Source of the DNA: Schmidtea nova
Taxonomy: Eukaryota
Assembly (NCBI GenBank): GCA_044892505.1
Contig: CM097882.1
Span: 465,620,001 to 465,684,000, forward strand
DNA length: 64,000 nt
Direction of reading: 5' to 3'
The position numbers and the translations under genes were made by a program. The notes below the pieces were generated by a model, which saw only the letters and a list, made by a program, of their open reading frames with translations, ran no database searches and was not told the origin of the DNA. The stretch's first letter is position 1; each line of letters starts with the position of its first letter. This document shows positions 27,777-63,920 of the stretch, piece by piece.

Positions 27777-27943
27777 AGTAATGATATTGCAATAAAGGCC
27801 AAAGACCAAATGTGAAGCAGTTCAGAGTATATTGCGTAATTCAATCACTGTGTTAGTTATTGCGCAATATACATAACTATTTAAGAGTGATCACTCTGTG
27901 TTTTTGGTAAATAAATCTTTAGATGGAACCGATTGTTGTAACT
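27777..27943 (+). repeat. 3' LTR
   Basis: See 5' LTR. Confidence 0.95.
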
Positions 27944-38426: not shown

Positions 38427-38875
38427 TACTTCTCCCATCTGATCAAAGTTTTCTTGCGGAACTGGTATAGGATATGTGTCCTTTCTTGGTTTAATTTCCG
38501 ATAATCAACATAAAATTGTAATTCACCGTCCTTTTTCATTACTGCTATTGATGATAGGAATGGTGATGAACTATCTCTTATTATTTTAAATTTTTTCATT
38601 GCTTTAATTTGCCGATCGCTTTCCTCTTGATGTATATATGAAATTCTATACTATAGAATTTCATATATACATCAAGAGGAAAGCGATCGGCAAATTAAAG
38701 CAATGAAAAAATTTAAAATAATAAGAGATAGTTCATCACCATTCCTATCATCAATAGCAGTAATGAAAAAGGACGGTGAATTACAATTTTATGTTGATTA
38801 TCGGAAATAAAACCAAGAAAGGACACATATCCTATACCAGTTCCGCAAGAAAACTTTGATCAGATGGGAGAAGTA
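38427..38875. repeat. 449-bp near-perfect palindrome inside RT
   Basis: 224-bp arms centred on 38651, one mismatch seen. Confidence 0.95.
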
Positions 38876-41800: not shown

Positions 41801-42722
41801 ACATGATACACTTGATCAATAAGACAAACAGAGTTATCTCTAATGTGTATAATCAGACGATAAAATGTTACCCGTCAAATGTACCCAAATAAAAGGGCTG
41901 TTCTATACTATTGTGGAAAAATACAAGCAATATTAGAAAAACAAAATGAATGACAGGTCTTATCTTTCCGACAACTACGATCAAAATCGTATTCTAAAAT
42001 TGTGCTAATAAAAATCAAATATTATCGACGAGCCAGATACTCTAATCTTTGGCAATTAACCTTAGTTGAGGACAAATTTGTGTTGGTATCATATACGGAA
42101 ATGGACAATTATTCACAGAAATTAAATCAATCAACTCGAATCACAAATAATAAAACTATATCATCCTCATTTACGGAAAATAAAATTCTACGTAACGTTG
42201 TTCATAAAAATTATCATTATAACAATATTTATCATTATTCTCATATCTTTTATCATCTACGAAATTCGAAAAACTGATAGACAGACTACGAATCAATCCG
42301 AGACTCGGATACCTTGGATCGATTATGACGAGACATTTGTATAGTGAGATACAATTATTTGCGTGCAATTACGGTATATTAATTGCGTAGCATCTAGTAA
42401 CATTTTCTTGTATCAATGTTTCATGTGAATCTGCTCTCTTCGAAATGGGAAAATTGGGAAATTGATTTAATTGGCTAATACTAAGAGTGAGGGGGTAGAA
42501 AAAAGGTCTAAAAAATTAAAAAGAGGGTATATAAGACAAACTTAAAAATCATAAAACTTAAAACAAATTTTAAAGAATTAAGAAAATTTTAAATTAAATC
42601 GGTAATTTTATATTTTTTTATTTATACCGCTACCGACTAAGACAGTATCTTTTAGGTACTCCGTCTTAGTCCTAGCGTCAAAATTAAATTAAATCAAATT
42701 TTAATTATAAACATTTAGAAAA

Positions 42723-43855
42723 ATGGAACAGCTACAATGGGCCAGGGAAACTTGCGGCAGTTACCTAAAGATGATGAAAAATCATGCCGGCCAAAGAAAA
42801 TTCCGGATGACCAACAACTTACAAATCCCAAATTACCTACGGTTGAATGATAGAAAATGAAAGTTCAATTATTCAACATCAACAGAATATCAAAATTCCA
42901 AATAACAAATGAATTAAAACTATCAAAAAAGGAAGAATACCCTATCCATGTAATCAGGGGTACGGTAGAAAAGCTAGATGAAAATGGACAAATATAGTGG
43001 GAGATCAAAAAACATTCTTCAAGCAAAATTAAGGATCCAGCAATTGGGAAAATATTACGAGTAGCAAACGAGGATGCCACAATTGTAGTGGAAACTAGAA
43101 TAAAAAACGAAATTGATGACGTACCCAGCAAGGTCCAATGTAGAAAGAAAATCATGAACTCTTAAAAATAACAAAGGAAATGTTGAAGAGAAAATTATCG
43201 TTTATTCGGAAGGAAATGGACATAGAAAAAATTCGCAGTAGGTTATTGTTCATTGATGTCGAAAATGGGAGCACTGATACATGAAAGATCATCCCCTTGG
43301 CGGTGGCCATTATGATCTATCATGGGGAAATTGTGAAAAATGTCTTCTTGACTCCTAGATGAAGACTCAAACATTTTAACTCAAACATCCATGGGATAAC
43401 GGAGGTGGCCAGCCGAAACGAAAATGACAAGTATATAGAAATGAAGGAGATTTAAAAACTGGCAATCGAAAAAATAATAGAAGGAGACGATTTACATGCA
43501 GAATTGCAATTCTTAGCAATATGGTTCAACCATCTTTTTGGCATTCAGGATCTAGCCACAGCTCAAGTTTTGCAATTGAAAGGAGTCATAAAAAGAGAAG
43601 TAACCATCAATGGGCAATGGTTCAAATTATCAATAGTATGCGACATAAAAATGCGAAAAGGAAAACATTCCGCATTGGAAGATACGGAATCAATTCGGAG
43701 AATTTACTTGGCTTTAGCAAGTCAATGGCAGGATGATGTGGAAAATGAGGAGACAGCCAGCAAAAGAAAATGTTCATTAGAAGATTACAGGAAGAGAAAA
43801 GCTCCAACAACCAGTGAGTTTATGAATGAACCAAAAGATAAAAGGAAATCTCTGT
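42723..43855 (+). pseudogene. Accessory ORF with DEDDh exonuclease domain (decayed)
   Basis: Frame from 43201: LLFIDVE (ExoI), VFLTPR*..HGIT, IIEGDDLHAEL, GIQDLA, GKHSALEDTESIRRIY (ExoIII); N-terminus NNLQIPNY resembles NQICIPND in ORF 53854-55953. Confidence 0.8.
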
Positions 43856-46742
43856 GCCGTTCGTCTGCGGATAATATGCAGTCGAACGCAGTCGTTTGAT
43901 GCCAAGCTGTTCGGATAAAGAGGTAAAAAGCTGTGATTCAAATTGCGCTCCTCTGTCGCTAATAATTTGTCTGGGAATGCCATATCGTGAAACCCATTCT
44001 GAAATGAAAGATTCAGCGACAATATTTGCTGAGACAGAACGTAGAGGAACAGCTTTACACCATCTTGTCTTCCTGTCTATAATTGTTAAAAGATACGAAA
44101 AACCATTGTTTGACCGACAAGATCAACGTGAACGGCATCAAATTAATTGCCTGTTGGAAAGTGCATGTGCGGTGGTTTAACGTGTCGAGTAATTTTGTCT
44201 GATTGGCATTTCAAACACTGACTATCTCGTCTCATAAAGGGCCAAACGACTTGGTTTCTTAGCAGCTGATAAGTGGCGGTCGAGCCAGGGTGACCTAAGT
44301 CGTGAACTGCACGGAATGCCTGTTTTCGAAGCTCGAATCCAAGAATAGGTCTAAGAGTTCCCGAAAGTGAAGAGTCTAAATCAATGCGGTCTACGTTTGA
44401 TTTATGGGGTTGAAAATATTGTAGATCAGCTTCGGTTGGTTTATTCTCGCAGAGTGGAACTAGTAAACAGGGGTTCCAAGGAGATAGCCTTGGCACTACG
44501 TTAGAGAAAATCAGCTAAAATGTTCTCTTTACCCGCTATGTGTCTGATGTCACTGGTGAACTCGGTAATGAAAGAAATTTGACGTAACTGCCTGGGAGAG
44601 TTATCCTTCATAGTTGTTAAATGAACCAACGGCTTGTGATCAGTGTAAACTGTAGTATATCTACCTCCGAGCAAATTTTTGAAATGTTTAATCGACAGAA
44701 ATATGGCTAAAAGTTCCCGAATGAACGCGGAATATTTGGTTTGAGTTTCGGTTAACTTCTTAGAAAAGAATTCACGAGGTCGAACTATACCATCTTGCAC
44801 CTGTGTTAACACAGCGCTTACTGCGACGTCGGACGCATCCGTGGTTAGACTGAAAGGCAGAGAATACTTTGGGTAAGCCAAAGTCTGAATTGATTCAAGT
44901 GCTTTTTTAGCTTCGATTTCTCTGTCCATTTTATAATATATCGCTTTGATCCCGAACTGTGCTAAGTCAAAGGAGCCAGAATATCAGATATCCTAGGTTT
45001 GAACCTGTGGCAATAATTGACTACGCCTAAAAAGCTGTGAAGCTGTGTGACAGTTTCCAGTTTAGAAAAATTTCTGATGGAATTTAAACGTTCAGTTTGT
45101 GGAGCTATTCCATCGGCGGATAAAGTGTGTCCCAGAAATTTTACACTTGATTGAAAGAATTGACATTTGGAATGATTTATCTTGAGTTGATGTTGCTCTA
45201 AGATTTTAACGAGTTTAGATAGATTCTGTTTATGTGTTTCGGCATCAGGCGATGCGACTAGGATGTCGTTGACGTAGGCTACTACATAATCTAGCCCGGA
45301 TAATATGTGATCGATATGTCGCTGGAATGTTTGTGCAGCGTTCCGTAAACCAAAAGGCATTCGCAGGAATTTGAAGAGACCTGTAGCAGTGATGACAGCT
45401 GTTTTTTGCATATCAGATGGAGCGACAGGAATTTGGTGGTATGCCTTCGTCAGATCGATCTTAGAAAATATTTTGTTACCTGTGAATCTGGCTAACGAAT
45501 CCTTTATAAGAGGCATTGAATATGAGTCGTGCTGTGTGACGGTATTTAAACGACGGTAGTCGCCACATATCCCGAAAGAAGAGTCTTTCTTAGGGACGAA
45601 ATGGATCGGAGAGGCCCAAGGTGAAGAAGATCTTTGGATCACTCCTGCTTGTAACAAATTATCATATTCTGTCTTCAGAAATGTCAAGTTTGCTCCGGAT
45701 ATCGGGCACACTCTCTCTATCTGAGTGGCGGTGAATTCAGAGTAAGGATTTGATGATAGAACCTTTGGTCTAAAGATCTTGTTGTATGAGTGAAGTTATC
45801 ATCGAAAATTCGATTAATGTTGAGTTTGTTAACAAAGTTCGTGAATAGATCGATAGAGAATGTATTGCATTCAGCAGTTTGATTAGAAGCGTCATTTAAA
45901 GACGTGGAATTAATATTGGGATCGATGACGGACAGTGAGCGTTTGTTGCAATCGATGATGATGTTAAAATTTTCAAAAAAGTCGATGCTCAGATCGATTC
46001 CCATTTCTGTAATTACACCCGATCTGACAAATGTGTGCGGAAACTCCTAACCTCTGATGATAATAACATATCCATGGAGTTTTATTACGTGTGTGGTCAC
46101 GCGACTGTGATCTCGGTCGCCTTCGGTCCGTTGATGTAGATCTTGCCTCAAGCTTCTGAACTTTTCTAGTGAGATTTTTGATTGCCGATATAAGAGGATT
46201 AAAAGAATGATCCGTAGAATTTTTAGTTTTCGTGGGTGTTGTTACTGAAATTTGGTTGCAGAAACCTGTATTTGGTTCTCGAGAAACCTCGGCTATTTTA
46301 TCAGCCATATTGGCGATATCGGCGAGTGAAGTCGAGTTGGAAACTGCTAAGATGGCTTGTGTTTGTTGAGGCAAGTCAGAAAGAAAAAAGCGACAAAGAA
46401 TAGCGTCATCTTGAGTGATGCCTTGCTGTAGCGATTCGAGGTTGTCTATGGCTTGCTTCAGGAATTCGGATGGTCGTTAGGAACTTAGGTGTTGAGTCTT
46501 GAAATATTTACAAAATATTTCTGCTTTTAGTTCCCTGAAGTTATTGATTATGGCATTTTTGAGGGAAGTAAAAGGATCAACTTCGGCAAAAAGGTTTGGT
46601 AAGAGATGCGCGAGTTAAGAAAGGAGTTCGATGGGGAGAAACGAGACAAGTTGGTCGAACTTTTGCTGTGAAGTCGCGATGTTTCTGGCGTGGAAGGATC
46701 GTTCAAAAATAAATAACCATGCGTTCGGTGATTCGTTTACAT

Positions 46743-47171
46743 CTAAAAAAATGGCTTGATGTTTAGGGTTGTAAAGATGTTGATACTCGTACTGTCTGCC
46801 GATGAAGTGAAAATGTGAGGATTTGGGGAATCAGGTGATAGGGGTGATAAGGTGGTGATGAGATCACTCTCATTCATGCCTCCACGTAATCTTAATGTCA
46901 CGTGTACAACTACTCCCGCCGGTAATACCTTGGCTAATGGTCCCTCATCGTTGGCTACGCTAAAACCTATGTGTGAGCAATAGAAGGTGTTTAATTTCAA
47001 GTGCAAAATGGAGCAAATGAAGCATTCTAAATCGTGCAAGGTTAGAGAAAGTGGAAACGTGCAAAATAAGTTGCGTGAGAAGTCTTGCATTAGTATAGTA
47101 GCCTTGGCGAGGACAGGAAAATAACGAGGCTCTTTCAGTAACACAGAAGGAGGTGGTGAAAGGACACGCAA
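46743..47171 (-). CDS. Ubiquitin-like domain ending LRLRGG fused to gag N-terminus
   Basis: About 74-aa Ub-length segment ending VVVHVTLRLRGG, then MNESDL...IKPFF; one extra T in the T7 run restores PFFLDVNESPNAW of gag. Confidence 0.8.
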   Translation of the reverse strand: MRVLSPPPSVLLKEPRYFPVLAKATILMQDFSRNLFCTFPLSLTLHDLECFICSILHLKLNTFYCSHIGFSVANDEGPLAKVLPAGVVVHVTLRLRGGMNESDLITTLSPLSPDSPNPHIFTSSADSTSINIFTTLNIKPFF

Positions 47172-47254
47172 AAGGAGGGGGAAATGTGGTGATAATTATT
47201 TTTTTAAAAATATAAATATAGAATTTTTTTAATATAAATAGATAATATAAATCA

Positions 47255-47273
47255 GATCCTGCTACTGACACCA
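47255..47273 (-). promoter_or_regulatory. Putative primer binding site (tRNA-Leu-like)
   Basis: TGGTGTCAGTAGCAGGATC one base after ...ACCACA; resembles the common TGGTGTCAGAAGTGGGAT PBS. Confidence 0.65.
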
Positions 47274-47274
47274 T

Positions 47275-47447
47275 TGTGGTATTTGCGTGGTTCGCCTCCA
47301 TTGCTAATTTTGTTTTTGTTATACGTCAATGCATTTGTTTGCCCCCGCAGGAAACAGGCATCAAGATTTCGAATTGCCGTCATAGCTTGTGGGTGAATTG
47401 CAAACAGCATTAAAGCCGTATTCTTTTTGTTAAACGTAATTGTAACA
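47275..47447 (-). repeat. Putative 5' LTR
   Basis: TGTTACA...ATACCACA bracket upstream of the PBS; no second LTR in window to confirm. Confidence 0.4.
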
Positions 47448-47496
47448 TTTACGTTAACCATCATGTTATTGTTTGCATTGATCCTTTCCTCGTTAT

Positions 47497-47707
47497 TTCG
47501 ACCGTGCATCATTAGAGAGTATATTAATCGCCTAACAATTGGACATTGTGCTTGTCTAAATCGTTTTGTTTGATAACGACCAGCAGACTGGGGAATTATT
47601 TTTGCATATTTTCCACTATAATTAATGCAATCTGCCATTGACAGATCGACAGCGCGAACATCATCAGTGCTCCATTTAATGAAAAGTTTAAAGTCAGGCA
47701 TATTCAC
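47497..47707 (-). pseudogene. RPS5: 40S ribosomal protein S5 (uS7) N-terminal fragment
   Basis: [47 protein letters not shown]; diverges after GRNN; substitutions at conserved positions. Confidence 0.92.
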
Positions 47708-47924: not shown

Positions 47925-49615
47925 CACCACAATGTCCTCCCAATGCTCCATCGTGGTATTGTAATAATAACGACTCTCTATACTTTTTTGGCACTAGTAT
48001 TACATTATATCTCGTTTCCACGTATTTAATTAAACCTTCCTCCAAGATAAATTTATCTTTATGTTTCTCCTAATATTTTTGAATCTCGCTTGGTATGGCT
48101 TTTGCTTCGTTGGCTTGTCTGATCATGTTGATCTCGTCATCACTTTTCTGCGCCTCTACCAAGTCAGTCAACGTATTTGCTTCTCTCGTTAACATAAAAA
48201 TTGTTCCTTCTAATCTTTCTTCCTTTACGTCATCTGCTTCCGGTTCTTGTTCCATGCGTGATAGATCGTCTGCGGTACCATTGGCTTTTCCTTTACGATG
48301 TACAATCTCAATATTATATGGCTGTAATATCAATGCCCATCTTAATTATTTCGATGCTTCATCTCTATGTTTTAACAACCATTGCAGTGGTCTATGATCG
48401 GTATAGAAAATTACCTTTATGCCCTATAGGTAATGGCTAAACTTCTCTACTACAAATAAAAGTGCTTCTAGTTCTATCACCGTATAACTTTTTTCGTGTG
48501 GCTTTAATCCACGACTAGCGTATGCTACCGCGTACTCATTGCCAATTTCATCTTTCTGTCTTAATACTGCACCTATACCTCTTGCACATGCATTAGTCAT
48601 TACCATAAATTGCCTTTTAAAATCTGGAAACCGTAAAATTGGTGGTTTACATAATGCCTCTTTCAGCTTATCAAACGCTTGCTGCTGATCCTCTCCCCAT
48701 AAAAAATTTAACTCCTTTCTTTTCTACCGTAGTTAAAGTAAAAGCGATCGCAGAAAAATTTCAAATAAATTTACTATAATATCCCGTAAACCCTAAAAAT
48801 CTCTAAATTTGTTTCTCATTCACTGGTTGTTGGAAATTCTTTACTTTATCCGTGTTAGCCGGATCTGGTCTTACGCAATCGTGTGATATTACATGCCCTA
48901 CGCAAATCACTTCCGACTCTGCCAACTTGCATTTGCTTTATTTTACTTTTAAATTTGCCATGATTAATCTTTTAAAAATATCCTCAAAATGTTCTTAGTG
49001 CTTATCTAAATCTTCCGAGAAGATGATAATGTCGTCTATATACACCATTGCATGATGTGCATCCATCAGCATGATATTCATAGCCCTCTGAAAAGTTGGA
49101 AGTGTTCCTTTTAGTCCAAACGGCATCACTACATATTCGAAATGGTCACTACTTGTTGAAAATCCAGTCATCGAAATTGAGTCTTCGCTCATGTTTATTT
49201 GATAAAACCCCTTCTGTGCATCCATCACAGTAAACAATTTTTCATTTTATTGTATATTTAATCTAACAAAGGTAGCGGGTGATTATGACTTACAGTCTAC
49301 TCATTTAATTTCCTATAGTTGTTACATGACCTAACTGAATCATCTCTCTTAGCTTCAACCACCAAAGGTGAGGAATATGGAGATTTACTTGGACTGATTA
49401 TATTATACTTTTGCATTAATTTAATTTGTTTATCTACGAACCCTTGTATACTTTTAGGTATTCTATATGGGCGAATCTTTATTGGTTTAATTTCTGTTAA
49501 TTTAATCTCATGTTCTAAGCTATTAACTTGTCCTAGGTCATATTCGTGTTTTGCAAAAACTTAGTCATATTTTCGTAACAATTGATTAACCCTAATATTC
49601 TCTTTTCTAGTTAAA
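47925..49615 (-). pseudogene. pol: Gypsy pol fragment (RT, RH, start of IN), related to the env-class elements
   Basis: VFAKHEYDLG, PIKIRPY, MPFGLKGTLPTFQR, YIDDIII, MTNACARG, HRKGKANG, YHDGALGGH; many disablements. Confidence 0.85.
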
Positions 49616-49805
49616 ACTAAATAAAACTAAATAAAAGCTTAAATAAAACGTTATTGCATTGTTATACCGTATAGTATACAACTGTAAGTTTTAACTAGCG
49701 CTTTATTCTTAGATTACTTTTTAAAATGTATTTAGTTATCTTTCATTTTTTACAAAAACCCTGTTAAAGGTGAAAACAAAATAGAAATTGGTGTTAAACA
49801 ATTCA

Positions 49806-52560
49806 TAATAAACCCCAGAGTTTGACCAGGTTCTCGTCTGACACACATTCCCGACTGCGCTCTTTGTTGTTGGTATCTATGGCCGAGTGTCTTCCACGAA
49901 GCAATCACAAATCAACATATCTTGTGGGATCAAAACGTGTGAGTCCGGGTCCAACTAATCTTATAAATAAAAGCGAAGATACAGTTGTTGTCTTCAATGA
50001 AGCTCATGACGGGGTGATGATAAGATTCATCTGTAAAAACCCTCGCTCAGCTTCACTTGAAGAAATTGGGATTGTACTGGGGGCAATTTTCAAAGGAAAA
50101 AGTTTATCAGGAACACTTTTTTCGGTGATATATTCACGAAATCCACGAATCATTATTCTTTCGTTTAACTATAATCTTGTTGACAAGTTCCTTATTTCTG
50201 CTTCGCCAAACGTCAAGTGCGTATCAATATTGTTGGGCCAATGTTTTAGATCAAGCACTCGAGCCGAGTATGCCAAACTAGCATCTTCACTGGACAGCAA
50301 TCTTTGTTCTATTGATTCTCTTAGCTTTTTGAAACGCTTTCACATCAATTGGTGGATCATTTTTACTTTCTTTTTTGTGAAGTGAAACTCCTCTGAAAAA
50401 GTTATTATCTGCAGCAGTGGTCGCAATTTTATAATAAGGGCCTGGAATGATTTGTCGTTCTTCAAAAACCTGTATAAGAGCCTTGATCTTTTAATCTGCT
50501 TTGTAAAGGTTCATGTCGCGCTTTTGCAAATCTAAACTTAACTCTGACAGCTCTTGTAGGGCATCGCATATCAATCCGAGGTCTAATACGAATTTAGTAG
50601 AAGTAATCTTCCGCTGTAAACCTTCGTATGTGCATTGATCTTTTTTGTCTCAGGTTGGATAATGTTTTGTTTCGTCAAAATGCTTAACCAAAACTTCGTA
50701 ATCTTCCCAAACTGCTAAAACTAAACGGAAACTGGATACCACCCATATCGTGCTCAACATCCTCCCAATTTTTAACAACTCAGTTTGTAACAAATTAGCA
50801 CATATTTGCAATTCTCTTGAATTTTTTGGCAAAGGACACACAGTTTATCAATGAATGCTTTCAATCGGTTGATCCCCGAAACTTGTTTTATGGTATCATC
50901 AACGGAGAGTTCCAGTCGGTGATTTGTACAATGCCAAACCAGAACAGATGGAAACTTTTCTTTCAGCAATTTCTTGACTCCAGTTTTGCACCCCAACATC
51001 ACAACTGCTCCATCACATGCAAGATAAATCAAATTTCTTTTAAGAAATTCTTCTGTTATCCCATAGGAATGAAGGCAGTTTAGTAATAAATCAAAAATTC
51101 CCGTTGTGGTTACACTTTCGAGTTCTACCAAATCCAAGAATAAATTCACTGGTGAGTTCATTCCACTGTCCGCAAGACAAACACGAATGTACACAATTAA
51201 AGTAGATTTCTGGCTAGGCGTAGTTGATTCATCGATAATCAATGAAATTTTATTGTCCCACCTTATTATTTCTTTGATCAATTTTATTTTCATTTCAGAA
51301 CTTATGTGATTCACTAAATTGATACATGCATTGGTTGAATGGACTATATGGATCACCTCAATTCCATTCAGTTCTTGCAAATCAATTTCAGATTCAAAAT
51401 TATGAAACGATTTTTTTTCTTTGGCCACTTTATATGCCGTACGAAAAATCTTTGCAGTTACGACTTTTTCAGGAGATAATGCCTTTAAAAACAGGTTCTC
51501 GATAGGTGCCGTATCGGCTTCGGCTAGTATCTTAAGTGCAGCTTTATGTGTCGCAGTTTCCTTATGATCGAACAATTTTTTCCGTAATGACATAAGCTGA
51601 TGTTTTCAATTAATATTGAAGTAGGTTATTTGATTGTTAGACCATTCTTTAGATATCTTCATTCAAATCTTTGCCTCGACTCTGAGGTTACCAACTTTTC
51701 GGCACGGAAAACAACCAAAGTTTTTATCATGGATAGATAGCCAGTTATACTTTGTACAGAACTCGTTTTTTTGATCCAAAGTCCAGCATGCATGCCAGTC
51801 AGCATCATCAAGTTGTAATTGCTCAATAGCATCAGATGATCCAAGAACGCTATTTGAATGCATTATTTCCAATGGGTCCGTTATGGTTTCTTCTGTTACA
51901 CCAACTTCTGCCCTTATTTCTTCGCACAATCTGTTTTTTTATTTACTGGAAATTCGTTTGATTGCGAAGCAGAAAAGAAATCAAAAATCTTCATTTTCAA
52001 GTGAGATAAATTAATTATATACCAAGTAATCAATTATAAATTTTAATTTTGTAAGTTTTAATTTTTTAACTTGTTTTTAATCTTCTATGCATAACGTTTA
52101 AAAACACGTGGCCGGAAATGAGCTATCAATTAATGACGTCTTATTAAGAGTGTGCTTATAAATTGTGGCTGTCTGGATTCGTTTTGGTGGCAGGTGCTCG
52201 TTTCTATGTGGAAATATGAAATAAATGTACGCCACATAGGAACGGCATGCAAGCACTCTGCACAGCGTTAATAACAAACATTACCTTATATGAGTTATAC
52301 ATAATTGTGCACTAATAGGCACAATGCGAATATAATTATTATATTACGTTAAAACATTTTTGCTATTCGTATTTAAGTGCTAATTTATAGATAAAAATGT
52401 AAAATAAAACATTCATATTAATAGTATAATAAAAAATAATTATAATTTAAATCACTTAAAAGTTACTATTAATTATATTTTATTTTTTATAAAATGAAAA
52501 AGGTGCCGGTACGCCGTACCGGCGCATACCGTCACAAAAAAAAAAAAAACAATAGCCGGA
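49806..52560 (-). mobile_element. hAT transposon (ZNF862-like transposase), decayed
   Basis: IIDESTT, LACDGAVVMLG, WHCTNHRLEL, EGFSQMNLI, FIRLVGP; terminal block aaggtgccggtacgccgtaccggc..cacaaaaaaa at about 52495-52560. Confidence 0.88.
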
Positions 52561-53853
52561 TCACAGTTCTAGTATTGATATCGGATCACATTCGATTTCA
52601 TAGTCCTCATAGGCGTCGTCGCAGATCCAGTCCTGGACCTTCCCGGCTTCGTTCTTCGCTATTCCGTCCGGTCCATAGATGTTCGGATTCGGTGCCCAGC
52701 ATAAGTGGGACTTATACATAACTATTTCATGTATGCTGATAGTCTCTGTTTATTTGGATTGGGTTCTCCGTCCTTCTTGGAATTTGAATGGAAGATTTAG
52801 GTATTCGGTAGTCTCTCCGGTAGCGAGGTTTCGCGAGCGATCTAACATAATATATCCAAGTTGATGGAATTCTGGTACCCTGATCTTATTGAAAAAAATC
52901 ATCCACCGGGTACATTGTCAGTGTCGTGCTTTACGGCAAACCATTTTGGTCTCGGATCCGTCGCCTCGCCTGAGGGCTATAAAGATCCTCTTTCGTAACG
53001 TAATTCATCTTTGTGTTGAGGTCCAAGATTTTTAGATCTCAACGTGCACTGGTGTAGACTATCGTATATAAAAATAAGATCAAGTCTTTTTTGAAAAATT
53101 TATTCAATAATAAAATTTACCAAATTTAAAATCAAAGGTTATCAATTACGCTTTCAAATCAAAAATTATCAAATACACTTTCAAAGCTTCACACTGTTTT
53201 ATTTAAAGGGTATTTTTTGCGTGTCCTATTGTGTGCTTGTTATTTTGTGAATGTATTATGTTTATTTTAATGATAACAATTCCGTGTTGAACGTTTTTGT
53301 ACTGTTCGTAAATTTTAAGTTCTCGCAGGATTACCCTTTGAGAAAGTTTGTTTCGCTAAATTTTTATTGAAATTGAATTTCAAAAAATTGTGGGCAAAAT
53401 TTAAAAATTTTCCCTTCTTTAAATACTAAAATTTTTCGTACTCGTTATTAACTTTAATTTCTATATTTTTAATTTCCTGTAATTATTCTCCAGCTGCTGT
53501 TAATCTAAAAATTTAAATTTCCTGTATCAAGCAAGCAATTAATTTTATATTCTAGTATCGAGCAAATGATTTCCTGTATTCAGCAATTAATTTTATATTC
53601 TAATTTATTAATAATATCTACATAAAATAACTTATTAATACATTTTATAATAGATCACATAAATAAAATAAAAATAAATAAATAATATATACATTCCAAT
53701 AAAATAAATTATTAATACATTTTTTACCACATAAATAAAAACACATTCATACAATATCTAAAATTATAAGAATCACAATAATATCAAATATTTACACCAC
53801 GAATAATGTCAATTGTCAAAACTAAATGTCAAATGTCGAATGTTAATCAAATA

Positions 53854-55953
53854 TTAAATATCAAATGGATGTTGATATCCTGGTTGGTGCTTGGATTGAT
53901 TGTGCACTGGGTACTGATTGATATTGGGTTCTGTTTCTTTTTTAATATTGGTTGCATCGACAGGCTCTGCATAAATATTCACTCTGTATTTGTTGCCCCC
54001 CACACTATAATTTTCTGATAGGAGGAATGTATTGATGGGCTTACCTTCATCATCCAACATTCCTCCCCGGGCCGTCAAAGTAATGTCCTCATTTCCTTTG
54101 TCACACAATATTAAATCAATTCTTTTCTCTTTTATTTGAATTGTTGTTTTTCGAAATCCATTTTTTATCGCAAGGTTTATCGTCTCCTCGTGCTCAATTT
54201 GTCTTCCAAAATGAGTGCAGAGATCTTTTTCTGAGACATACTTTTTGTCTTTGTCTATTATGAAGTCTGATTCTTCTGGTTCTGTCCAGTCGGCTAACAT
54301 TTCAACTTTTGGTTCTGGTCCGATATCCTCTTCCATTATGTTGTATTTACTACTTGTTGATGGTTCTTCACTATCTTCTTCCATTTTGATGTCGTTACTG
54401 CTGGTTGAAGGTTCTTCTATGTTTTCATCTGCTGAGAAATATTCATCGTCTATATCACATTCGTCCATTCTTTCATATAGAATATTTTGAATTTTGGGTT
54501 CTGCTTTGATTTCCCTAGTTGGAGCGATAAGTGGTATTTCTTCTTTTATGATCATGAGTTCATCGTCGTCACTGTCCATGAGTTCTTCCATGAATGACTT
54601 TTTTGGTTTGTAATGATTGGTTTTTGTTAATTCCCCATGGGACGGCTCCATGCCTTCTCCATCTTCATATTTACTTTCTATCTCACCTTCTGCTTCGCTC
54701 TCTGTTTCGTTTTCGAATATTGCTTCTAGTTGTTCTTCTCCATTTACTTGTTTCCTTTTAAGAAGTGTTGCGGAATCCCATTTGACAACTTCTTCCCATT
54801 TATTTTCTGTGATATCGTAGATCACTTTTAATAACATTGTGGTGATCTTTGTTGAGAATGGTTCTGGTTGTCTCAATATATCATTTAACTTTTTATCTTT
54901 ATGCCAACTTTTATGGTAATTGATTACCTGGTAAGCCAAATTTGATATTTTTATTTTTGGTGGGGCCACGTTTTTTACAAAAGAACACATAAATCGATCC
55001 TGTGCCATTTCTCTTATGCCCATAATGTTGTCCAGATCTATCGTCAATAGTTTTAACTTATCTATGATGTTGAATCCAACTATGATCTTTCCATAGAGAA
55101 TGTTTCGAATTTCATTTAAGGCTTTATATTCGTCTTCATTTCCAATTATGTTTTCTTTTGTAGCTTTAGTTTTTTCCGTGTAGAATTTTTCTACTTTCGT
55201 TCTTGGGGTGATGAATTTGTTATACAGAATTGCTCCTTTTCTGCTTCTGATACAAATTTCCACTGGTCTGAGATTTTTGTTTATATCTTGAATTACTTTT
55301 ATATCCACCATTACAGTTAATGAATGCCTTTCTTCTGTCGTTAACTCTTGATTCGTGAATGATATCTTCTGATTGATCATATCTTCATTTATTTGTAGGA
55401 TTGAATGTATTGGGTTTAATTTTATGAACGGATTTGGGATTGTCGGGATATATAGCACTTCGATTGCTATCACACATGGTAGGTTGTTCATCTGCACTGT
55501 CAACTCATTGAAATCGTTTGACATGCTTCTGTCTTTTCTTATTAACTTGATAACTGCTGAACAGTTGCTTGTGACAATTAACGGGATTTTATTTTGACAT
55601 ATTGCAACTTCTGTTTTTGTCATGTGGAATATTAGTCTGTGAGGGATTCTCTGGTTTTTTGCAACTTCTTTGTCGACGTTTTGGTATTTGTCGAAGGTTC
55701 CAATAAGCTCCCTGAGTTTCACTCTTCGGGCCTCATTGAATTTTATCAGATGCATTTCCCGTTCTTCTATTTCGACTTTCATGTCGTTTGGGATACATAT
55801 TTGATTTGGGAAACTGCGAATTGTAATTGGGGTTCCATCCGTACATATCTTGTTCTGTAGATTTTTGTAAAAACTCATGTTTAGTTTGTTTATAAAACAA
55901 GTATATTTCTGGTAGGTTCTTGGTTGATTGAAATGAGGTTGATTTTGATTCAT
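53854..55953 (-). CDS. 699-aa accessory protein with REX4/ISG20-like (DEDDh-fold) pseudo-exonuclease and acidic region
   Basis: Residues about 212-385: VMVDIK..RPVEICIRSRKGAILYNKFITPRTKVEKFYTEKT..IRNILYGKIIVGFNIIDKLKLL..IREMA; catalytic residues mostly lost. Confidence 0.75.
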   Translation of the reverse strand: MNQNQPHFNQPRTYQKYTCFINKLNMSFYKNLQNKICTDGTPITIRSFPNQICIPNDMKVEIEEREMHLIKFNEARRVKLRELIGTFDKYQNVDKEVAKNQRIPHRLIFHMTKTEVAICQNKIPLIVTSNCSAVIKLIRKDRSMSNDFNELTVQMNNLPCVIAIEVLYIPTIPNPFIKLNPIHSILQINEDMINQKISFTNQELTTEERHSLTVMVDIKVIQDINKNLRPVEICIRSRKGAILYNKFITPRTKVEKFYTEKTKATKENIIGNEDEYKALNEIRNILYGKIIVGFNIIDKLKLLTIDLDNIMGIREMAQDRFMCSFVKNVAPPKIKISNLAYQVINYHKSWHKDKKLNDILRQPEPFSTKITTMLLKVIYDITENKWEEVVKWDSATLLKRKQVNGEEQLEAIFENETESEAEGEIESKYEDGEGMEPSHGELTKTNHYKPKKSFMEELMDSDDDELMIIKEEIPLIAPTREIKAEPKIQNILYERMDECDIDDEYFSADENIEEPSTSSNDIKMEEDSEEPSTSSKYNIMEEDIGPEPKVEMLADWTEPEESDFIIDKDKKYVSEKDLCTHFGRQIEHEETINLAIKNGFRKTTIQIKEKRIDLILCDKGNEDITLTARGGMLDDEGKPINTFLLSENYSVGGNKYRVNIYAEPVDATNIKKETEPNINQYPVHNQSKHQPGYQHPFDI

Positions 55954-56415
55954 CTTTGTTTTTGATTGATATCGAATTGATTTCTTGAGATATTGATTTG
56001 AGAGATGATTAATAGGGTTTTGACAGTTTAACAGAGATATAATTGAATATATTGAGATATATGGGTAATTGTCGTAACGATTCGATTGGTTTATAGAATT
56101 GACGAGATTGATTGGGTATTTTGTATGGAGATGATTGGTAGGGTTTTCTGATTGTTTGTTGTGATAGTTTAAAAAGAGATGATTGTATTTATTGAGATTT
56201 TTGAATGGTTGTCACAATGATTTGATTGATGTGTAGAATTCACGAGATTGATTGGGTTTTCGGAGTTTGTTGGAACTTGCTTTGTTTTGCTCGTGTAATC
56301 TTTTCTAAAAATAAAGGATAAAGTTTTTTGTTTAAGACGTATTGTCGGTTTAACCTTATACGCTATATAAATACGAATATATATGATTTTAATTATTATT
56401 ACTGACAAAAACTTA

Positions 56416-59400
56416 TTATACCAATGTGGATTTTGTATATTCACCTGGTATATATTTGCCCAAATGGAAATGCCCTGGTACATTTCTGACCAGTCGGCTC
56501 CGATACCGCTGCCTTTTCCATTTGTACTTTTTGTAAATTTGTACGCTAGTTATTAAAGCTAAAACTGCTAATGCTATTATTGATGTTGTGATGACATAAT
56601 AAGGCCAATGTGGCTTTTTATCCTCTTTACGAAATGCTTGTAGTTCCTCTAAGTTATGTATCACTATTGGTCTTCCTTGCCTTATTTTGATAGGTTCTTG
56701 TTTTTGTTTTTTGGCATTGTATTGTTTTTGGAATTTGGCTATTCCAGTGCTTGTTGGTATTTCGTTTGTAAGTGGTGTGGTATTTAGTATATTATCTGAT
56801 GTCGTTGTTGTGCTTTTTATTCTATCGAGTGTTTTTGTTATGTTATGGTTTTTTGTTATATTCTTGGGTAATTGTTCTGTTTTTATTTTTTTGCATCTCC
56901 ATGTTGTTGTATCTGTGTTTCTCTGTATGCAGATTTTGTATATTGTATTAGGTGTTAGTTTTGTGAAATTAATATAGTTTCCTCTTTCGATTTCGTTGGT
57001 TATTCTGTCGTCTTTTCCTTTTATCATCTTTGGGTTTTTCCCATTCGTTGTTTGCATGTATAAATCAATTACTCCTCTATTTATGATAAATGCTCTAACT
57101 TCGTTTGTTGATATTTTTATTAATACTTTGTCAAATTCTATTGTTTCGGTTGAGCCAACAAATGTTATGATTGTTAAGAAGATAGCCGATATTATTAGTT
57201 TGTTATGAGATCTTAGATTATACTTGTGGGGTTTATCTATCGTGACCTCGGCTTCCGCCAACTTGCATCTGTTGACATGTACTACTATTGGATCCTCGTT
57301 TTTATGCTTTTGTAAGTGTAAATTCTCATTTATTACTTTTACTACCTCATATGGACCTTTATATGGTCTTGCTAGTTTTGTTGTCTTTCCCTTTCCTACT
57401 TGTGGTGACATAAGTCTAACCTTATCACCTACTTTAAAGTTGTGTGGTTTACTATTTTTGTCGTAGTCGGCTTTGTACTGTTCTTGTCTATATTTGACTT
57501 TTAGATTGGCTACTTTATACACTTCTTGCAGTTTTTCCTGCATTAGTGTGACATAATCTGGTGCATCTAAATATTGTGATACTCGAGGTTCAAATATTGT
57601 ATCTATTGGTGTTGCTGGTTCTCTTAAAAACATTAAATAATACGGTGAATACCCTGTTGTTTCGTTTGGAGTGATATTATGAATGTATGTGCATTGACTT
57701 ATGTATTCGTCCCAATCATTTTGATTTTTTCCTACAAAAACAGCTAGTCTGCTTAGTAATGTCCCATTAAATCTTTCTACTAGTCCATCAGTTTGAGGGT
57801 GATACGCTGTTGTGTTGATCTTTTGCATGTTAAAAATATTAGCTACTCGTTTTATTAATTCACTAGTAAAATTTGTTCCTTTATCTGTTAATAATCTTTT
57901 GGGTGTGCCTATCTTGAAAATAATTTTTTCTATAAGCAATTTAGCAACTGTTTCTGCTGTTTCGTCTTTTGTTGGAAATGCTTCTGCCCATCTAGTAAAA
58001 TAATCACTAAATACTAGTATATGTTTATTCCCATTAATTGTAGTAGGTAATTTACATAGAAAATCCATTGCACATAGTTCCATTGGTGATGTCGTTGCTG
58101 GAATGGGATGTAACGGCGCTTTTGTTTTTGTACCTGTATTTTTTCTTGTTGCACATATTGTACACGCGTTACACCATCTCTTAACATCTTTCTTTAATTC
58201 TTCCCAGTAATATTTTTGTAATAATCTACTTGCTGTTTTTCTAGATGATAAGTGACCTCCTAATGCTCCATCGTGATATTGTAGTAGGAGTATTTGTCTT
58301 AATTTCTGAGGTACTACTATTAGTTGCTTACCATTGAAATCTTCTATTACTACTAATTTCTTTGATATTTTATACTTTGAATTGTTTTCTTTTCTGATTT
58401 CATTTTTTATTTTACTGATCTCTGGGTCTTTCATCTGTTCCTCATATATATCGATTGGTTTTTCTGCTACTAGTGCAAATATTTCAAGTGCTCCTAATTC
58501 TGGTATTCTTGATAGTGCATCTGCGTTTTTATTTATTCTACCTGGTTTATATATAATTTTTAGGTGCATGTCTTGTATTTTCATTGCCCATTTAAGTAAT
58601 CTACTTGATGTATCTTTATGTTTCCATAAGCCTTCTAATGGTTTATGGTCAGTTCTTATTATCACTTCAGTCCCATATATGTATGGTTTGAATTGTTTTA
58701 GGGCGAATACTATTGCGTAACATTCTTTTTCTATTGTTGAATACCTCAGCTGTGCTCCTTTTAATGTTTTACTGGCATATGCTATTACGTAATCTTTCCC
58801 TTTTTCTTCTTCTTGGCCTAAGACTGCTCCTACGGCTTTCCCGCTGGCATCCGTCATTACTATAAACTGTTTTTCAAAATCTGGGTATCTTAACACTGGT
58901 GCTGTTATCAATCTTTCTTTTAGTTTATTGAATGCTTCTTGATGTTCCTTTGTCCACTTCTTTTGTATCTTGTTAACTTTGCTGTTCATTTCTTGTACTA
59001 TTAACACATTTTTGCATTCTCCTTTTGTTCTAATTCCCTTTGTCAGTTCTATTATCGGTGATGCTATCTTTGCATAATCTTGTATGAATTTACGATAGTA
59101 CCCTGTTAGACCTAAAAACCCTTGTACTTGTTGTACTGTTTTTGGTATTGGGAATTTCTTTACAACTTCTATTTTTTCTGGATTTGGTTTTATCCCTTCT
59201 ACTGTAACTATATGCCCTAGAAATAACGCCGAAGGTTCTGCCCATTTACACTTAGTTGGTTTAATTTTAATTTTTGCTTTTCTTAGTCTCTCGAGTACAT
59301 TTGTTATATCTTTTAAGTGTTCCTCAAATGTTTTTGATGATATTAGTATATCATCCATGTAAACTGCGCAATGTTGTACATTTACTAATATTGTGTTCAT

Positions 59401-60705
59401 TAGGCGCTGAAATGTAGCTGGTGCGTTAGTTAACCCGAAAGGTAATCGTGTATACTCATATAAACCATCCTCGATAACAAATGCTGTTTTTTCCGCATCC
59501 CCTTCCTCCATTTGAATTTGCATATATCCCTTATTTGCGTCAATAACTGAAAAATACTTAGCATCCCTAAGTTTATCGTATTGCTCTTGTGCTTTTGGGA
59601 ATGGGTATGAATCTTTTACTGTTACATCATTTAATTTACGATAGTCAATGCACATTCTTATTTCTCCGTCTTTCTTTTTAACGGGTACAATGGGTGATGC
59701 CCACTGTGAAAAACTCTGTTTTATTACACCTGCATCGTTTAGTTCTTTGATTTGTCGTTTTATTTCCTCTCTTAACTTGTATGGTACGCTGTATGGTCTT
59801 TGTTTTATTGGTCTCGCATTACCTGTATCTATTACATGTTTGATTATATCGGTATCCCCTAGATCAAATTCGTGTTTTGCAAAAACATCACTATATTTAT
59901 CTATCAATGTTTGTAGTTGTGCTTGTTGTGTTATTGTTAAGTATTCATTATTAATTTTCACTTTGTCATATGATTTTATATTATTTATCTTACTAGGTTC
60001 GACTACTCCCTTGCCGTTATTATTCATCACGCTTATCTCACTGACTTCGTACGTTTTTTCTAATTCACCTTTGAATAATTTTCCCAATTTCGTACCTTTG
60101 TGTATTTTAACATTACTTTTTTCATAATTTGCTATTCTCAATGGTATTATTCCCTTTCTCGGAATTACGCATTCATTGATTAGCATTATATTCTGATTTT
60201 GTATAATTGCCGTTTCTGGCTCAAAAATAAAAGTGTCCTCACTTTTGATGTTAACTTTTAAGGGAATTATATGATCGCATTCATATTCCAATTCAAATGC
60301 TTCTAATGCAACAACTTCTGTGAACTTGGATTTATGTTTAATTGCTTTTCTCTTTATCGTATTATCTGTTAAATCTATAATGCAATTTTCTAACTTGTTG
60401 AGTATATCGATTCCCAATATACATATGCTATTACATTCTTGCACCACTTTAAATATGTGGTTTATTACATGTTCTGGTGTTTCGACAATTAGTTCTATGT
60501 CTCCCTTTAGTGGAATACGATGTGCTGATAACGATACTACTTTATCCGTTGTGCTCATAATATTTCTTTTTTGATCATCTGTCAGTTGATCTTCTCTAAT
60601 TAAGGATGTTGCTTCTCCTGTATCTACTAATGCATTTATGATTATATTGTTTATAATTATTCTAAGTCTTGGTCTTGCTTCGTTTGCTGCATCTAATCGT
60701 TCCAT
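56416..60705 (-). CDS. pol: Pol polyprotein PR-RT-RNase H-IN plus C-terminal type I membrane protein
   Basis: ALVDTGEA, QWASPIV, CIDYRKLN, LPFGLTNAPATFQR, YMDDILI, MTDASG, HDGALGGH..CxxC, AMDF, TDKGTNF, QTDGLVER, YKGPY; last 261 aa carry two hydrophobic segments. Confidence 0.95.
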   Translation of the reverse strand: MERLDAANEARPRLRIIINNIIINALVDTGEATSLIREDQLTDDQKRNIMSTTDKVVSLSAHRIPLKGDIELIVETPEHVINHIFKVVQECNSICILGIDILNKLENCIIDLTDNTIKRKAIKHKSKFTEVVALEAFELEYECDHIIPLKVNIKSEDTFIFEPETAIIQNQNIMLINECVIPRKGIIPLRIANYEKSNVKIHKGTKLGKLFKGELEKTYEVSEISVMNNNGKGVVEPSKINNIKSYDKVKINNEYLTITQQAQLQTLIDKYSDVFAKHEFDLGDTDIIKHVIDTGNARPIKQRPYSVPYKLREEIKRQIKELNDAGVIKQSFSQWASPIVPVKKKDGEIRMCIDYRKLNDVTVKDSYPFPKAQEQYDKLRDAKYFSVIDANKGYMQIQMEEGDAEKTAFVIEDGLYEYTRLPFGLTNAPATFQRLMNTILVNVQHCAVYMDDILISSKTFEEHLKDITNVLERLRKAKIKIKPTKCKWAEPSALFLGHIVTVEGIKPNPEKIEVVKKFPIPKTVQQVQGFLGLTGYYRKFIQDYAKIASPIIELTKGIRTKGECKNVLIVQEMNSKVNKIQKKWTKEHQEAFNKLKERLITAPVLRYPDFEKQFIVMTDASGKAVGAVLGQEEEKGKDYVIAYASKTLKGAQLRYSTIEKECYAIVFALKQFKPYIYGTEVIIRTDHKPLEGLWKHKDTSSRLLKWAMKIQDMHLKIIYKPGRINKNADALSRIPELGALEIFALVAEKPIDIYEEQMKDPEISKIKNEIRKENNSKYKISKKLVVIEDFNGKQLIVVPQKLRQILLLQYHDGALGGHLSSRKTASRLLQKYYWEELKKDVKRWCNACTICATRKNTGTKTKAPLHPIPATTSPMELCAMDFLCKLPTTINGNKHILVFSDYFTRWAEAFPTKDETAETVAKLLIEKIIFKIGTPKRLLTDKGTNFTSELIKRVANIFNMQKINTTAYHPQTDGLVERFNGTLLSRLAVFVGKNQNDWDEYISQCTYIHNITPNETTGYSPYYLMFLREPATPIDTIFEPRVSQYLDAPDYVTLMQEKLQEVYKVANLKVKYRQEQYKADYDKNSKPHNFKVGDKVRLMSPQVGKGKTTKLARPYKGPYEVVKVINENLHLQKHKNEDPIVVHVNRCKLAEAEVTIDKPHKYNLRSHNKLIISAIFLTIITFVGSTETIEFDKVLIKISTNEVRAFIINRGVIDLYMQTTNGKNPKMIKGKDDRITNEIERGNYINFTKLTPNTIYKICIQRNTDTTTWRCKKIKTEQLPKNITKNHNITKTLDRIKSTTTTSDNILNTTPLTNEIPTSTGIAKFQKQYNAKKQKQEPIKIRQGRPIVIHNLEELQAFRKEDKKPHWPYYVITTSIIALAVLALITSVQIYKKYKWKRQRYRSRLVRNVPGHFHLGKYIPGEYTKSTLV

Positions 60706-60981: not shown

Positions 60982-62763
60982 TTATTTAGCTATAAATGGG
61001 CACAAACATGCTAATAATTTATATGAATTTCCAAATACTTGTTTTAGCTGTCTCAGTGATACTAGAGAAGAACATATCATTTTTAGTAATGCAACCGTAT
61101 AATATATACCTAAGATTGTAGAAAACATGTTTCCAAGGACTACAAAGTATCCCCATATGCTATATAGTACTTTATATGCTACTTTTTTGAAGTATTCTTT
61201 TGATAATAACACATCAAAGTTGTAATTTCCTCCGTAACTTCCTTCGATAACTCTGTTAACCATTATTGAAAGTACTCTTTCTTTTTCGTTTGGAAATAGC
61301 ATGTGTTTTCTTGCACTTTCTATAGCTTCTCTCGTATATATACCATTACTGTCCATATCGTTGATTTCTTTAAACTCTAATCTTTTTTCTAGCTCTATGA
61401 GTTCTAATTTGAATGGTTTCATTGCCTCTTTTCTATCTGACATAGATATCCACATTTCGTCATTTATTTTGTATAATGGGTCTAATAGGTTAGTGCATTT
61501 TTCTATTTTTCTCGGTATATATGTTTTTTCTGTTAATATTCTAGTAATTGGTTGAAGGTATACCCTTTCTCCTTTATATATTACCGGTAATTCATTAGTG
61601 CACTGATTATTTGTTGCTAACGATACACTAACAGGTTTACATTGAAATGTCTGTATCACTTCTCCTACTATCCTTGCAAATGTTCCTTCTTCTGAGAAGA
61701 TTATTGGTGCCATTAAATCTGGGTTTGTTACCGCCACTGCCATTTTTGTCCTCAATATTTCTCTGTTGAGTTTGCAATCGCTCATAATTGTTGATTGATA
61801 TACTTTGTCTAATTGTACTAGTTGGTTATGATAGAAAAAATCGATTTTATTGTTGAAGTATGATGCAAGTTTGACGTCGAATTTATTTACTTTTTGTTTT
61901 GCATCTTTGACTTCCTCTTTGCTTATGTATATCCCTTCATAATTAGTTTGTATTATTTCCTTACCACATTTTACACTTTTCCTTTTACTAACAAACCTCA
62001 TTGCTTCGTTTTCAGATTCTGACATAAATATTGTTGGTGTATCTTTTTCTTGTACAATTGTTGTTTTCCTTTTTTGATCTCTCACCCTTTTTGAGTCTAC
62101 TTCTGTGAACTGTTTTCCTTTGATTTCCCTAAATTTTAATGATTTTAATTTTGTTAACTGACAATCGTATTTATCTATTTTATATATTAGCATTGATTCT
62201 CCTGTATCGCAATAAGATTCTTCTAATGTACAAAATTTGTATATCATCATTTTCTTTGAGCTGCTGTCGAATGATGCTTTGAACTTTCTCAGTTCTACCA
62301 TGTAGTGTCTCCTTACTACAACATTACTCAGTTTTTCGCCCCATATTGTATATTCTCCTCCTTCACAATATCCTCCTTTTGATGTCCATCCCACGACATT
62401 TATATCTTGTCTCATTTTTGCTCCTATCCTTGCTTCTAGTTCTATTCCTTTATGACCGCTATATTTTACTTTCTTTGTTTTAAATGCATATTCACACTCT
62501 ATTGGCGACAATATTACTGCTTCGGGTGTCCACGTAGGTTTTAACACTGTTCTTGCCCCAACATGACATATATATGCTTCCTCCTGATACTTTACTATGC
62601 ACTCTTTAGCCTCTGTATGAATAAAGTCTGATTCTTGATAAACATGGAATATTTGAGGCTCTGACATGATTAATTTAGTTGGATTTGCTTCAGGGCAATT
62701 TTCAACATCCAACAGTGTGTATTTTTGTCCCCACTTTGGATTTTGACAATCATATGCTACCAT
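60982..62763 (-). CDS. env: Envelope glycoprotein, chuvirus/Jingchuvirales-like (class III fusion candidate)
   Basis: N-terminal AYDC, LLDV..C, Cys-rich ectodomain, GEVIQTFQC..V..CTNELPV..G..YLQPITRIL, C-terminal hydrophobic helices. Confidence 0.8.
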   Translation of the reverse strand: MVAYDCQNPKWGQKYTLLDVENCPEANPTKLIMSEPQIFHVYQESDFIHTEAKECIVKYQEEAYICHVGARTVLKPTWTPEAVILSPIECEYAFKTKKVKYSGHKGIELEARIGAKMRQDINVVGWTSKGGYCEGGEYTIWGEKLSNVVVRRHYMVELRKFKASFDSSSKKMMIYKFCTLEESYCDTGESMLIYKIDKYDCQLTKLKSLKFREIKGKQFTEVDSKRVRDQKRKTTIVQEKDTPTIFMSESENEAMRFVSKRKSVKCGKEIIQTNYEGIYISKEEVKDAKQKVNKFDVKLASYFNNKIDFFYHNQLVQLDKVYQSTIMSDCKLNREILRTKMAVAVTNPDLMAPIIFSEEGTFARIVGEVIQTFQCKPVSVSLATNNQCTNELPVIYKGERVYLQPITRILTEKTYIPRKIEKCTNLLDPLYKINDEMWISMSDRKEAMKPFKLELIELEKRLEFKEINDMDSNGIYTREAIESARKHMLFPNEKERVLSIMVNRVIEGSYGGNYNFDVLLSKEYFKKVAYKVLYSIWGYFVVLGNMFSTILGIYYTVALLKMICSSLVSLRQLKQVFGNSYKLLACLCPFIAK

Positions 62764-63920
62764 TGCATTGCCCCCTTGATTAAATCTAATAACAAAGTGA
62801 TTATGACTATTACTATGGAGGTTATCGATTTACTCTCTGTCTTTGGTTTTACTGTTGCTCTCTTTATTAATTGTTTTATTACATTATCTGTATCACTCTC
62901 TTTATTCGTCGTATCTTTATCATATAATACTTTCCATCCTCCTTTCTTTTTTATCCATGGTATTGCCTCTACTTTCAATCTTTTAAACATCATTGTTGCT
63001 ACTTTTTCTAATTGCTCTTTTGGATTTTCCTTTATGAGCTTTTTATATCTTGCGGCCAAGTATGCCATGGCCGTTATTATTTTATCTTTATCTATCCCTG
63101 TATTAAACAGGATTTTTAACACTGTTTTTTCATTTGCTTCCTCTGTAGCTAGTTCTTTAGTATCCTTTTTAATTAACATCATCCTTTCAGTTATATTTTC
63201 AATAAGTACTGTTGGCTTTGTTTCTGGAAATAGCTTAATATTCATTGCTTTTATTACTTCTTTTATTTTGTTTACGTCATTATTATCGTCTTGATACTCT
63301 GGTTGTTCATGTTTATGTTGATTTGCAATCTCTCTTAATCGTTCTGCTGTCTTCCTATTCTCCGATTTTTCTATTATTTCTGATTTTCGAGGTCTTCCTC
63401 TACCTCGTTTTGATGTTTCTGCATCTTTTGTTTTTGCTTCCTCAGCTATTCTTTCTATTGTTTCTTGTAAGTTACTATACTTTTCATCTATAGGTTTAAA
63501 TAAAATTTCTTCATCCATTACTGATTTCTTTGTTTCGCTAGGTGATTTATCCCATAGCCTAAATAATCTATCAAAATCGTTTTCTTCATTTATACTCAGC
63601 TCAACCGACGGTACTGGCGTCACTATTTCATCGATCATTTGTTTTTCTACTGTGGCTACCACAATATTATCACTTACTGGGTTTATCCCATAATCGATTA
63701 AGTACTCATCACTTAATAATTCTATTCCGTTAAAATATAATTTTATTACATCTTTCTCTCCTATGGTTCCTGGCCATTTGGCTCTTACCATTCGTTTTAA
63801 TTTGCTCACTTTAGTGCAAGGATGCATCTTTTGTTTAATACTAAAAAAATAATTATCATTTGATTCAATCGTTACATTTAGTGTTTCATGCAATTTTTCA
63901 TTTTTTCTTATATTCTCCAT
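62757..63920 (-). CDS. Ubl, AT-hook, Bcl-2-like domain and hydrophobic tail (probably the N-terminal part of the polyprotein)
   Basis: IKLYFNGIELLSDEYLIDYGI (Ubl), KRGRGRPRK, LFNTGIDKDKII...PWIKKKGGW (BH1/BH2 spacing), SITSIVIVIITLLLDL. Confidence 0.75.
   Translation of the reverse strand: MENIRKNEKLHETLNVTIESNDNYFFSIKQKMHPCTKVSKLKRMVRAKWPGTIGEKDVIKLYFNGIELLSDEYLIDYGINPVSDNIVVATVEKQMIDEIVTPVPSVELSINEENDFDRLFRLWDKSPSETKKSVMDEEILFKPIDEKYSNLQETIERIAEEAKTKDAETSKRGRGRPRKSEIIEKSENRKTAERLREIANQHKHEQPEYQDDNNDVNKIKEVIKAMNIKLFPETKPTVLIENITERMMLIKKDTKELATEEANEKTVLKILFNTGIDKDKIITAMAYLAARYKKLIKENPKEQLEKVATMMFKRLKVEAIPWIKKKGGWKVLYDKDTTNKESDTDNVIKQLIKRATVKPKTESKSITSIVIVIITLLLDLIKGAMQW

Follow-up and report, generated by a model that had tools for sequence, protein, structure and literature searches.

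The 699-aa open reading frame P0001, at 53854–55953 on the minus strand of the 64,000-nt window of Schmidtea nova DNA analysed here, is carried as accessory gene by a recently expanded, multi-copy Ty3/Gypsy element of the GAG-ENV-POL type and lies between pol and the 3' end of the element. Its product joins an N-terminal double-stranded beta-helix (DSBH) domain to an exonuclease fold of the ISG20/REX4 type. With high confidence in both the anatomy of the element and this status, we read P0001 as a pseudo-nuclease. The reading is based on a lineage-wide, all-or-none loss of the catalytic residues with retention of the fold. We propose, with a probability of roughly 0.5, that the protein has been retained to bind RNA or to act as a scaffold, in the life cycle of the element or in counter-defence.

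The coding regions of the element are all on the minus strand. The ORF at 62757–63920 contains a SUMO/ubiquitin-like part (PF11976, E 0.0039), an AT-hook-like part (AT_hook, E 0.11) and a Bcl-2-like part (PF00452, E 2.2e-6, a match below the curated cutoff). It is followed by env (60982–62763), which encodes a Monjiviricetes-type fusion glycoprotein (PF24664, E 3.3e-81), and by pol (56416–60705), where the Pfam families RVP, RVT_1, RT_RNaseH, Integrase_H2C2 and rve mark protease, reverse transcriptase, RNase H and integrase. A membrane-protein-like extension at the C-terminus of pol was read from the sequence. This tail (56416–57240) runs past the integrase with a hydrophobic segment, a Thr-rich stalk and a transmembrane-like segment; it includes what we take to be an FN3-like motif, and a Pfam scan of it gave no match. 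P0001 starts about 460 bp after the pol stop and is the sole long frame in the 3' part of the element. The G-poor spacer between them holds a 93-nt unit twice (56028–56120 and 56168–56260; 140-nt spacing, 76% alike), possibly an expression signal. A putative 3' LTR was placed at 53014–53327; a step in contig depth and nine loose contig ends in one run support only its outer end (CA at 53014), and the inner TG is a guess. No 5' LTR is found in the window, and the 5' part of the element lies beyond 64000. A stop-interrupted stretch of 165 codons at 52564–53058 (minus) was rejected as an extra gene of the element, as it is mostly in unique flank and its best PDB match has E 0.068.

The contigs used for depth came from four DNA runs (no more than three samples, all from a single study that may be where the window itself comes from). 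Over the unique flank (52513–53041) depth was 10–14 with zero differences. Across the exonuclease region, the five contigs listed had depths of 186–292 with 1–9 differing letters, which we read only as multi-copy, of the order of twenty, since depth is not copy number. The high depth across P0001 and its drop at 53014 place the ORF inside the element. The position of P0001 as the only long frame behind pol would also suit a host gene, either a domesticated one or a simple neighbour of the element. However, the multi-copy depth spans the ORF and falls only at 53014, P0001 has no introns, and a sister element has the same ORF at the same place. The host-gene reading is thus largely refuted and appears extremely improbable.

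The sister is a decayed element on the plus strand (36449–43899), recognised by tblastn and profile matches, with the order env-pol-ORF. Its ORF at 43153–43770 matches P0001 (tblastn E 7e-11, 24% identity), and remnants of both domains are found by profile, the DSBH domain at 42747–43108 (E 2.6e-6) and the DEDDh domain at 43195–43740 (E 5e-43). The exonuclease remnant also matches ISG20L2 (E 3.5e-5). The earlier note on this DNA had contrasted P0001 with a relative at 43.2 kb, rightly so: the remnant keeps D-E-E-H-D in the catalytic columns, though it is interrupted by three in-frame stops inside the domain. Within the pol of the sister there are two inverted arms of 228 nt (38423–38879; 99% complementary, 1 nt between them), which reflect either an inversion or an assembly artefact.

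Other features of the window are as follows. A third decayed pol at 47932–49623 (minus) is 37–41% identical to the pol of the element. Decayed DNA-transposase-like frames, with a resemblance to hAT/ZNF862, occupy about 49800–52535 (minus) with a palindromic end motif near 52507–52535; Pfam gave no match on 50772–51593. Fragments at 46743–47707 (minus), just upstream of a Gypsy remnant, show a resemblance to ribosomal protein S5 and, with LRLRGG, to the C-terminus of a ubiquitin-like protein. A compact Gypsy element at 23320–27943 (plus) has 167-nt direct repeats that are 99% identical and a gag-pol in several frames.

The frame of P0001 is intact, as noted earlier, and the plus strand opposite is stop-rich. 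Shuffling the bases 2000 times gave longest in-frame stop-free runs with a median of 55 codons and a maximum of 185 codons, against 699 aa. The earlier note had argued from the open frame to a pseudo-nuclease; that status is supported, on other grounds than the open frame, and the RNA-binding or decoy role which the note attached to it may apply. Env and pol share one frame with one stop between them, and this copy of the element has three breaks, one near 63.9 kb, one near 62.77 kb and one at the env stop. Given three lesions in about 10 kb, the chance that a 2.1-kb frame stays open is 0.54. The copy is young, about 1.6% diverged from its relatives in the sequencing runs (word share 0.60–0.62), so that an open frame says little by itself. 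The even odds of an open frame suit the view that P0001 has lost its function and is passively carried, or that the DSBH domain alone is of use, with the exonuclease fold carried along as a structural passenger. The evidence for a pseudo-nuclease comes instead from the shared catalytic substitutions and the all-or-none pattern of the family described below.

A phmmer search with aa 1–400 of P0001 gave 66 proteins at E ≤0.001. The alignment named A2 was made from P0001, 62 of these 66 homologs and two cluster members (65 rows), leaving out P0014, P0023, P0054 and P0064 as repeats or other families. With a three-sequence alignment only, AlphaFold returned a pLDDT of 32 for P0001; the model built on A2 is confident over aa 20–390, with block pLDDT mostly 87–98. 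On the minus strand, the ORF contains a DSBH (cupin/2OG-Fe(II)-oxygenase-like) domain at aa 14–173 (55435–55914; pLDDT 62–97 by block), an ISG20/REX4-type DEDDh fold at aa 200–392 (54778–55356), a probably disordered acidic linker at aa 393–564 (54262–54777; 31% D/E, net charge –38, low pLDDT) and a small beta-rich segment at aa 565–650 (54004–54261; pLDDT 40–68 by block), which by phmmer is common only to P0001, P0002 and P0003.

The exonuclease fold is supported by sequence, profile and structure. The RNase H-like (DnaQ) fold that the earlier note expected at residues 212–385 is predicted with pLDDT of about 89–98, and aa 212–390 superpose on ISG20 (1wlj) with Z 18.4 and an rmsd of 2.6 Å over 160 aligned residues (Foldseek E 2.5e-7). 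By sequence P0001 matches human ISG20 at E 2.2e-4 and RNase_T clusters in Atlas at 0.95, and the profile of A2 matches ISG20L2 (E 1.5e-31), ISG20 and SDN1 (further E values 3e-19 and 3.6e-17). The motifs quoted by the note are all present, LYNKFITP at aa 243, LYGKIIVGFNI at aa 286 and IREM at aa 313. Pfam gave no match for the whole of P0001, and its parts matched at chance level only (E 0.056 or worse); RNase_T was matched in 25 of 64 scanned family proteins.

The description of the N-terminal 200 aa as unrecognised, given in the earlier note, is overturned by the structural matches. The region of aa 14–173, modelled within the longer protein, matches the prolyl-4-hydroxylase 2jij with Z 11.3 (rmsd 3.2, 149 residues aligned), the viral prolyl hydroxylase 5c5t with 11.0, ALKBH6 with 9.9 and the cupin 1yhf with 9.8. 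Viral structure matches of P0001 include plant-virus replicases, which we presume to be the AlkB-bearing ones. The 2OG-Fe(II) dioxygenases and cupins bind iron through an HxD/E...H triad. In the DSBH domain of the family, HxD/E was found in the strand-II region of only two of 46 members, with the strand-II register inferred from secondary structure, so that the family conserves no iron triad. The sole conserved histidine is H110 (42/46), and D/E165 is kept in 44/46. The profile of this domain matches 49 of 72 proteins, and 14 of the 23 misses are shorter than 240 aa. No cupin or 2OG family is among the 25 Pfam families listed for 65 members; the DSBH-exonuclease fusion is thus a domain combination that Pfam does not recognise. 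An Atlas search with aa 12–180 gave no usable match. The domain-only homolog search found zero among 252 candidates, no family loci were found in viral contigs, and none for the homolog P0032, an eroded member, in metagenome contigs. One family member, P0015, matches both domains and has a C-terminal RING finger in addition.

Four of the five catalytic positions of P0001 are replaced. At ExoI, D217-I-K219 stands in place of D-x-E, so that D217 is retained and the glutamate is lost; at ExoII, K299 replaces the aspartate; at ExoIII, F366 and T371 replace the histidine and aspartate. The loss at ExoI and ExoIII had been stated in the earlier note, which was silent on ExoII. The same columns were obtained by two independent alignments, with ExoIII anchored through the alignment of the sister to ISG20L2. 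P0002 and P0003 share D-K-K-F-T with P0001. The exonuclease domain of P0001 is 63% identical to that of P0002 and 52% to that of P0003, against 38% and 18% in the acidic linker. The pattern is therefore a state of the lineage rather than a decay of the P0001 copy. P0002 seems to be a chimeric gene model with a piece of biotin carboxylase, and P0003 carries a long unrelated tail.

A nuclease that still cuts, with a non-canonical chemistry based on one Asp and two Lys, or a misaligned ExoIII, could be imagined from the retention of D217 and the sharing of K219 and K299 among P0001, P0002 and P0003, with K219 also present in P0004, P0012, P0042 and P0063. Two-metal DEDD chemistry, however, requires the carboxylates, the two alignments agree on the columns, and by a strict count all five residues are gone from 13 of the 19 eroded members. 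We consider this very improbable.

Over the 65 rows of A2, 31 read D-E-(D/E)-H-D (5/5), 19 keep 0–2 of the five residues, none keeps three or four and 15 are partial, where the eroded members may be over-sampled because the query P0001 is itself eroded. The histidine is present in 31 of 31 intact members, which assigns the family to DEDDh. In the eroded members K or R occupies the ExoI Glu column in 13/19, and the substituted residues differ from one eroded subgroup to another. D274, G312, R314 and W386 are invariant there (D274, R314 and W386 in 19/19). Two pocket-adjacent columns, Ser at 232 (30/31 intact) and Asp at 295 (31/31 intact), are not kept in the eroded members. The mean net charge of the domain differs little between eroded (+1.7) and intact (–0.5) members; that of P0001 (aa 211–392) is +10. 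The homolog P0018 is intact. Its locus, L002, is a 4-kb contig with a retropepsin ORF with hydrophobic segments upstream, and no RT was found on these 4 kb. Retroelement context was thus seen at only three loci, the element of P0001, the decayed sister and L002. L002 has a membrane-protein layout like that of the pol tail directly before the exonuclease ORF, without sequence similarity.

The possibility of a functionless relic can be weighed against these data. The catalytic columns drift freely among the eroded members, and rotifer ORF3s show no clear departure from neutrality within genomes in the accessible part of PMC5408684. However, eroded members at 20–30% mutual identity retain full-length domains and the invariant residues, and among P0001, P0002 and P0003 the exonuclease domain is far better kept than the linker. 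A relic is therefore improbable.

The number of losses depends on the tree. When the catalytic columns are kept in, one clade holds 20 of the 21 eroded rows. Without them, four, five or two changes are needed according to the choice of columns and rows; the two-change tree leaves out nine long or duplicate rows. For the five-change tree, none of 200 bootstrap trees had a single change, and the AU p value was 0.03 in one analysis and 0.27 in the row set of the two-change tree. As judged from sequences, catalysis may have been lost one to five times, and the trees favour repeated loss without proving it.

We propose that the ancestral family member would have been a 3'-5' RNA exonuclease handling element RNA or removing defence RNAs, and that the lineage of P0001 dropped catalysis. 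The DSBH-DEDDh two-domain module may now act as a non-cutting RNA-binding shield or scaffold. Its binding surface could be made of the lysines at two former metal-ligand positions together with surface residues invariant in the family, P250-R251, D274, G312-x-R314 and W386. For RNA binding as the mechanism, we see a chance close to even. The loss of columns 232 and 295 argues against canonical 3'-end binding. Also weighing against the proposal are the small charge difference between eroded and intact members, the variety of the substituted residues, the small number of loci with retroelement context and the breaks in this copy of the element. The loss of the two columns, and the invariance of non-pocket residues in intact and eroded members alike, would be expected if the nucleic-acid pocket were irrelevant and the surface bound either a factor of the host's defence or one of the element's own proteins (Gag, RT, IN), as a scaffold or decoy for other proteins; the acidic arm, long and disordered, may also suit protein binding. 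That basic residues recur in the ExoI Glu column speaks against it, and we regard it as possible but rather unlikely. The Bcl-2-like and SUMO-like cargo would fit a role in manipulating the host. As a speculative extension of the pseudo-nuclease reading, an extension that we consider unlikely in full, the DSBH-DEDDh accessory family of large env-bearing invertebrate retroelements might be an enzyme/pseudo-enzyme pair. The active forms would destroy defence RNAs or trim element RNA, in a way similar to the DEDDh exonucleases that some RNA viruses employ, and the dead forms, arisen several times, would use the basic residue at the former metal site to cap RNA 3' ends, to sequester them or to serve as a decoy for host ISG20/REX4-like restriction. 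If this were true, the family would be a retrotransposon-encoded suppressor of RNA-based defence; to our knowledge, animal retrotransposons have yielded only a few examples of counter-defence proteins.

That LTR elements can carry exonucleases as cargo is already known. In the accessible parts of the literature searched, an exonuclease of ISG20/REX4 type, fused to DSBH or catalytically dead was not described in such elements, and an earlier annotation is possible in supplements or Repbase. Matched active and dead members, as predicted here in elements carrying Bcl-2-like proteins, offer a comparative test of the role of such cargo in LTR elements, which was left open for rotifer ORF3s in the accessible text of PMC5408684.

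The giant Ty3/Gypsy elements Burro/GYPSM1 of planarians carry Ubi2/SUMO-like (PF11976), BCL2 and a mononegavirus-like env before PR-RT-RH-IN, according to the accessible part of PMC6431247. The element of P0001 has the same order and is Burro-like in this respect; its Gag, BIR, MATH and ankyrin parts, if present, lie outside the window. Burro elements are further marked by paired LTRs, a length above 30 kb and a single in-frame polyprotein; as to the last, the window shows env and pol in a shared frame within a broken copy. The downstream exonuclease ORF is without mention for Burro in that part of PMC6431247. An anti-apoptotic role of Burro1 is reported second-hand in the accessible text of PMC13465017. 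Troyka was rejected as a relative, since it has no env and has CG termini as far as PMC12440569 was accessible. The GAG-ENV-POL gB-type errantiviruses of Nematoda, Bryozoa and Platyhelminthes have env before pol, a chuvirus-like class III fusogen and multiple copies in the accessible part of PMC13524379, and the element of P0001 is alike in all three. DEDD, RNase T, cupin, AlkB, Bcl and Burro are all absent from the main text of PMC13524379.

The closest case in cargo is that of the bdelloid LTR elements Juno/Vesta and the Athena/Terminons, with a DEDDy exonuclease ORF3 downstream of pol (PMC5408684, cited again in PMC6338049, both as far as accessible). An exonuclease-fold ORF downstream of pol is common to both, and intact members of the P0001 family often read DEED. 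In contrast, the bdelloid enzymes are, in the same accessible text, of RNase D-type DEDDy with intact residues, in elements without env; P0001 is of ISG20/REX4/SDN1-type DEDDh, fused to DSBH, catalytically eroded and carried by an env-bearing element. ISG20, ISG20L2 and SDN1 are the best sequence and fold matches of P0001 (Z 18.4 and 14.1), from which it differs by the four replaced catalytic residues and the N-terminal DSBH fusion. Exuperantia, whose exonuclease fold is kept without DEDD catalysis for RNA binding, is matched by the fold of P0001 with Z 10.6. Maelstrom and EXD1 likewise keep the DEDD exonuclease fold without catalysis for RNA binding, according to the accessible part of PMC5408684. 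These three are host genes of other DEDD subfamilies, whereas P0001 is encoded by an element and has intact, predicted active sisters within its own family.
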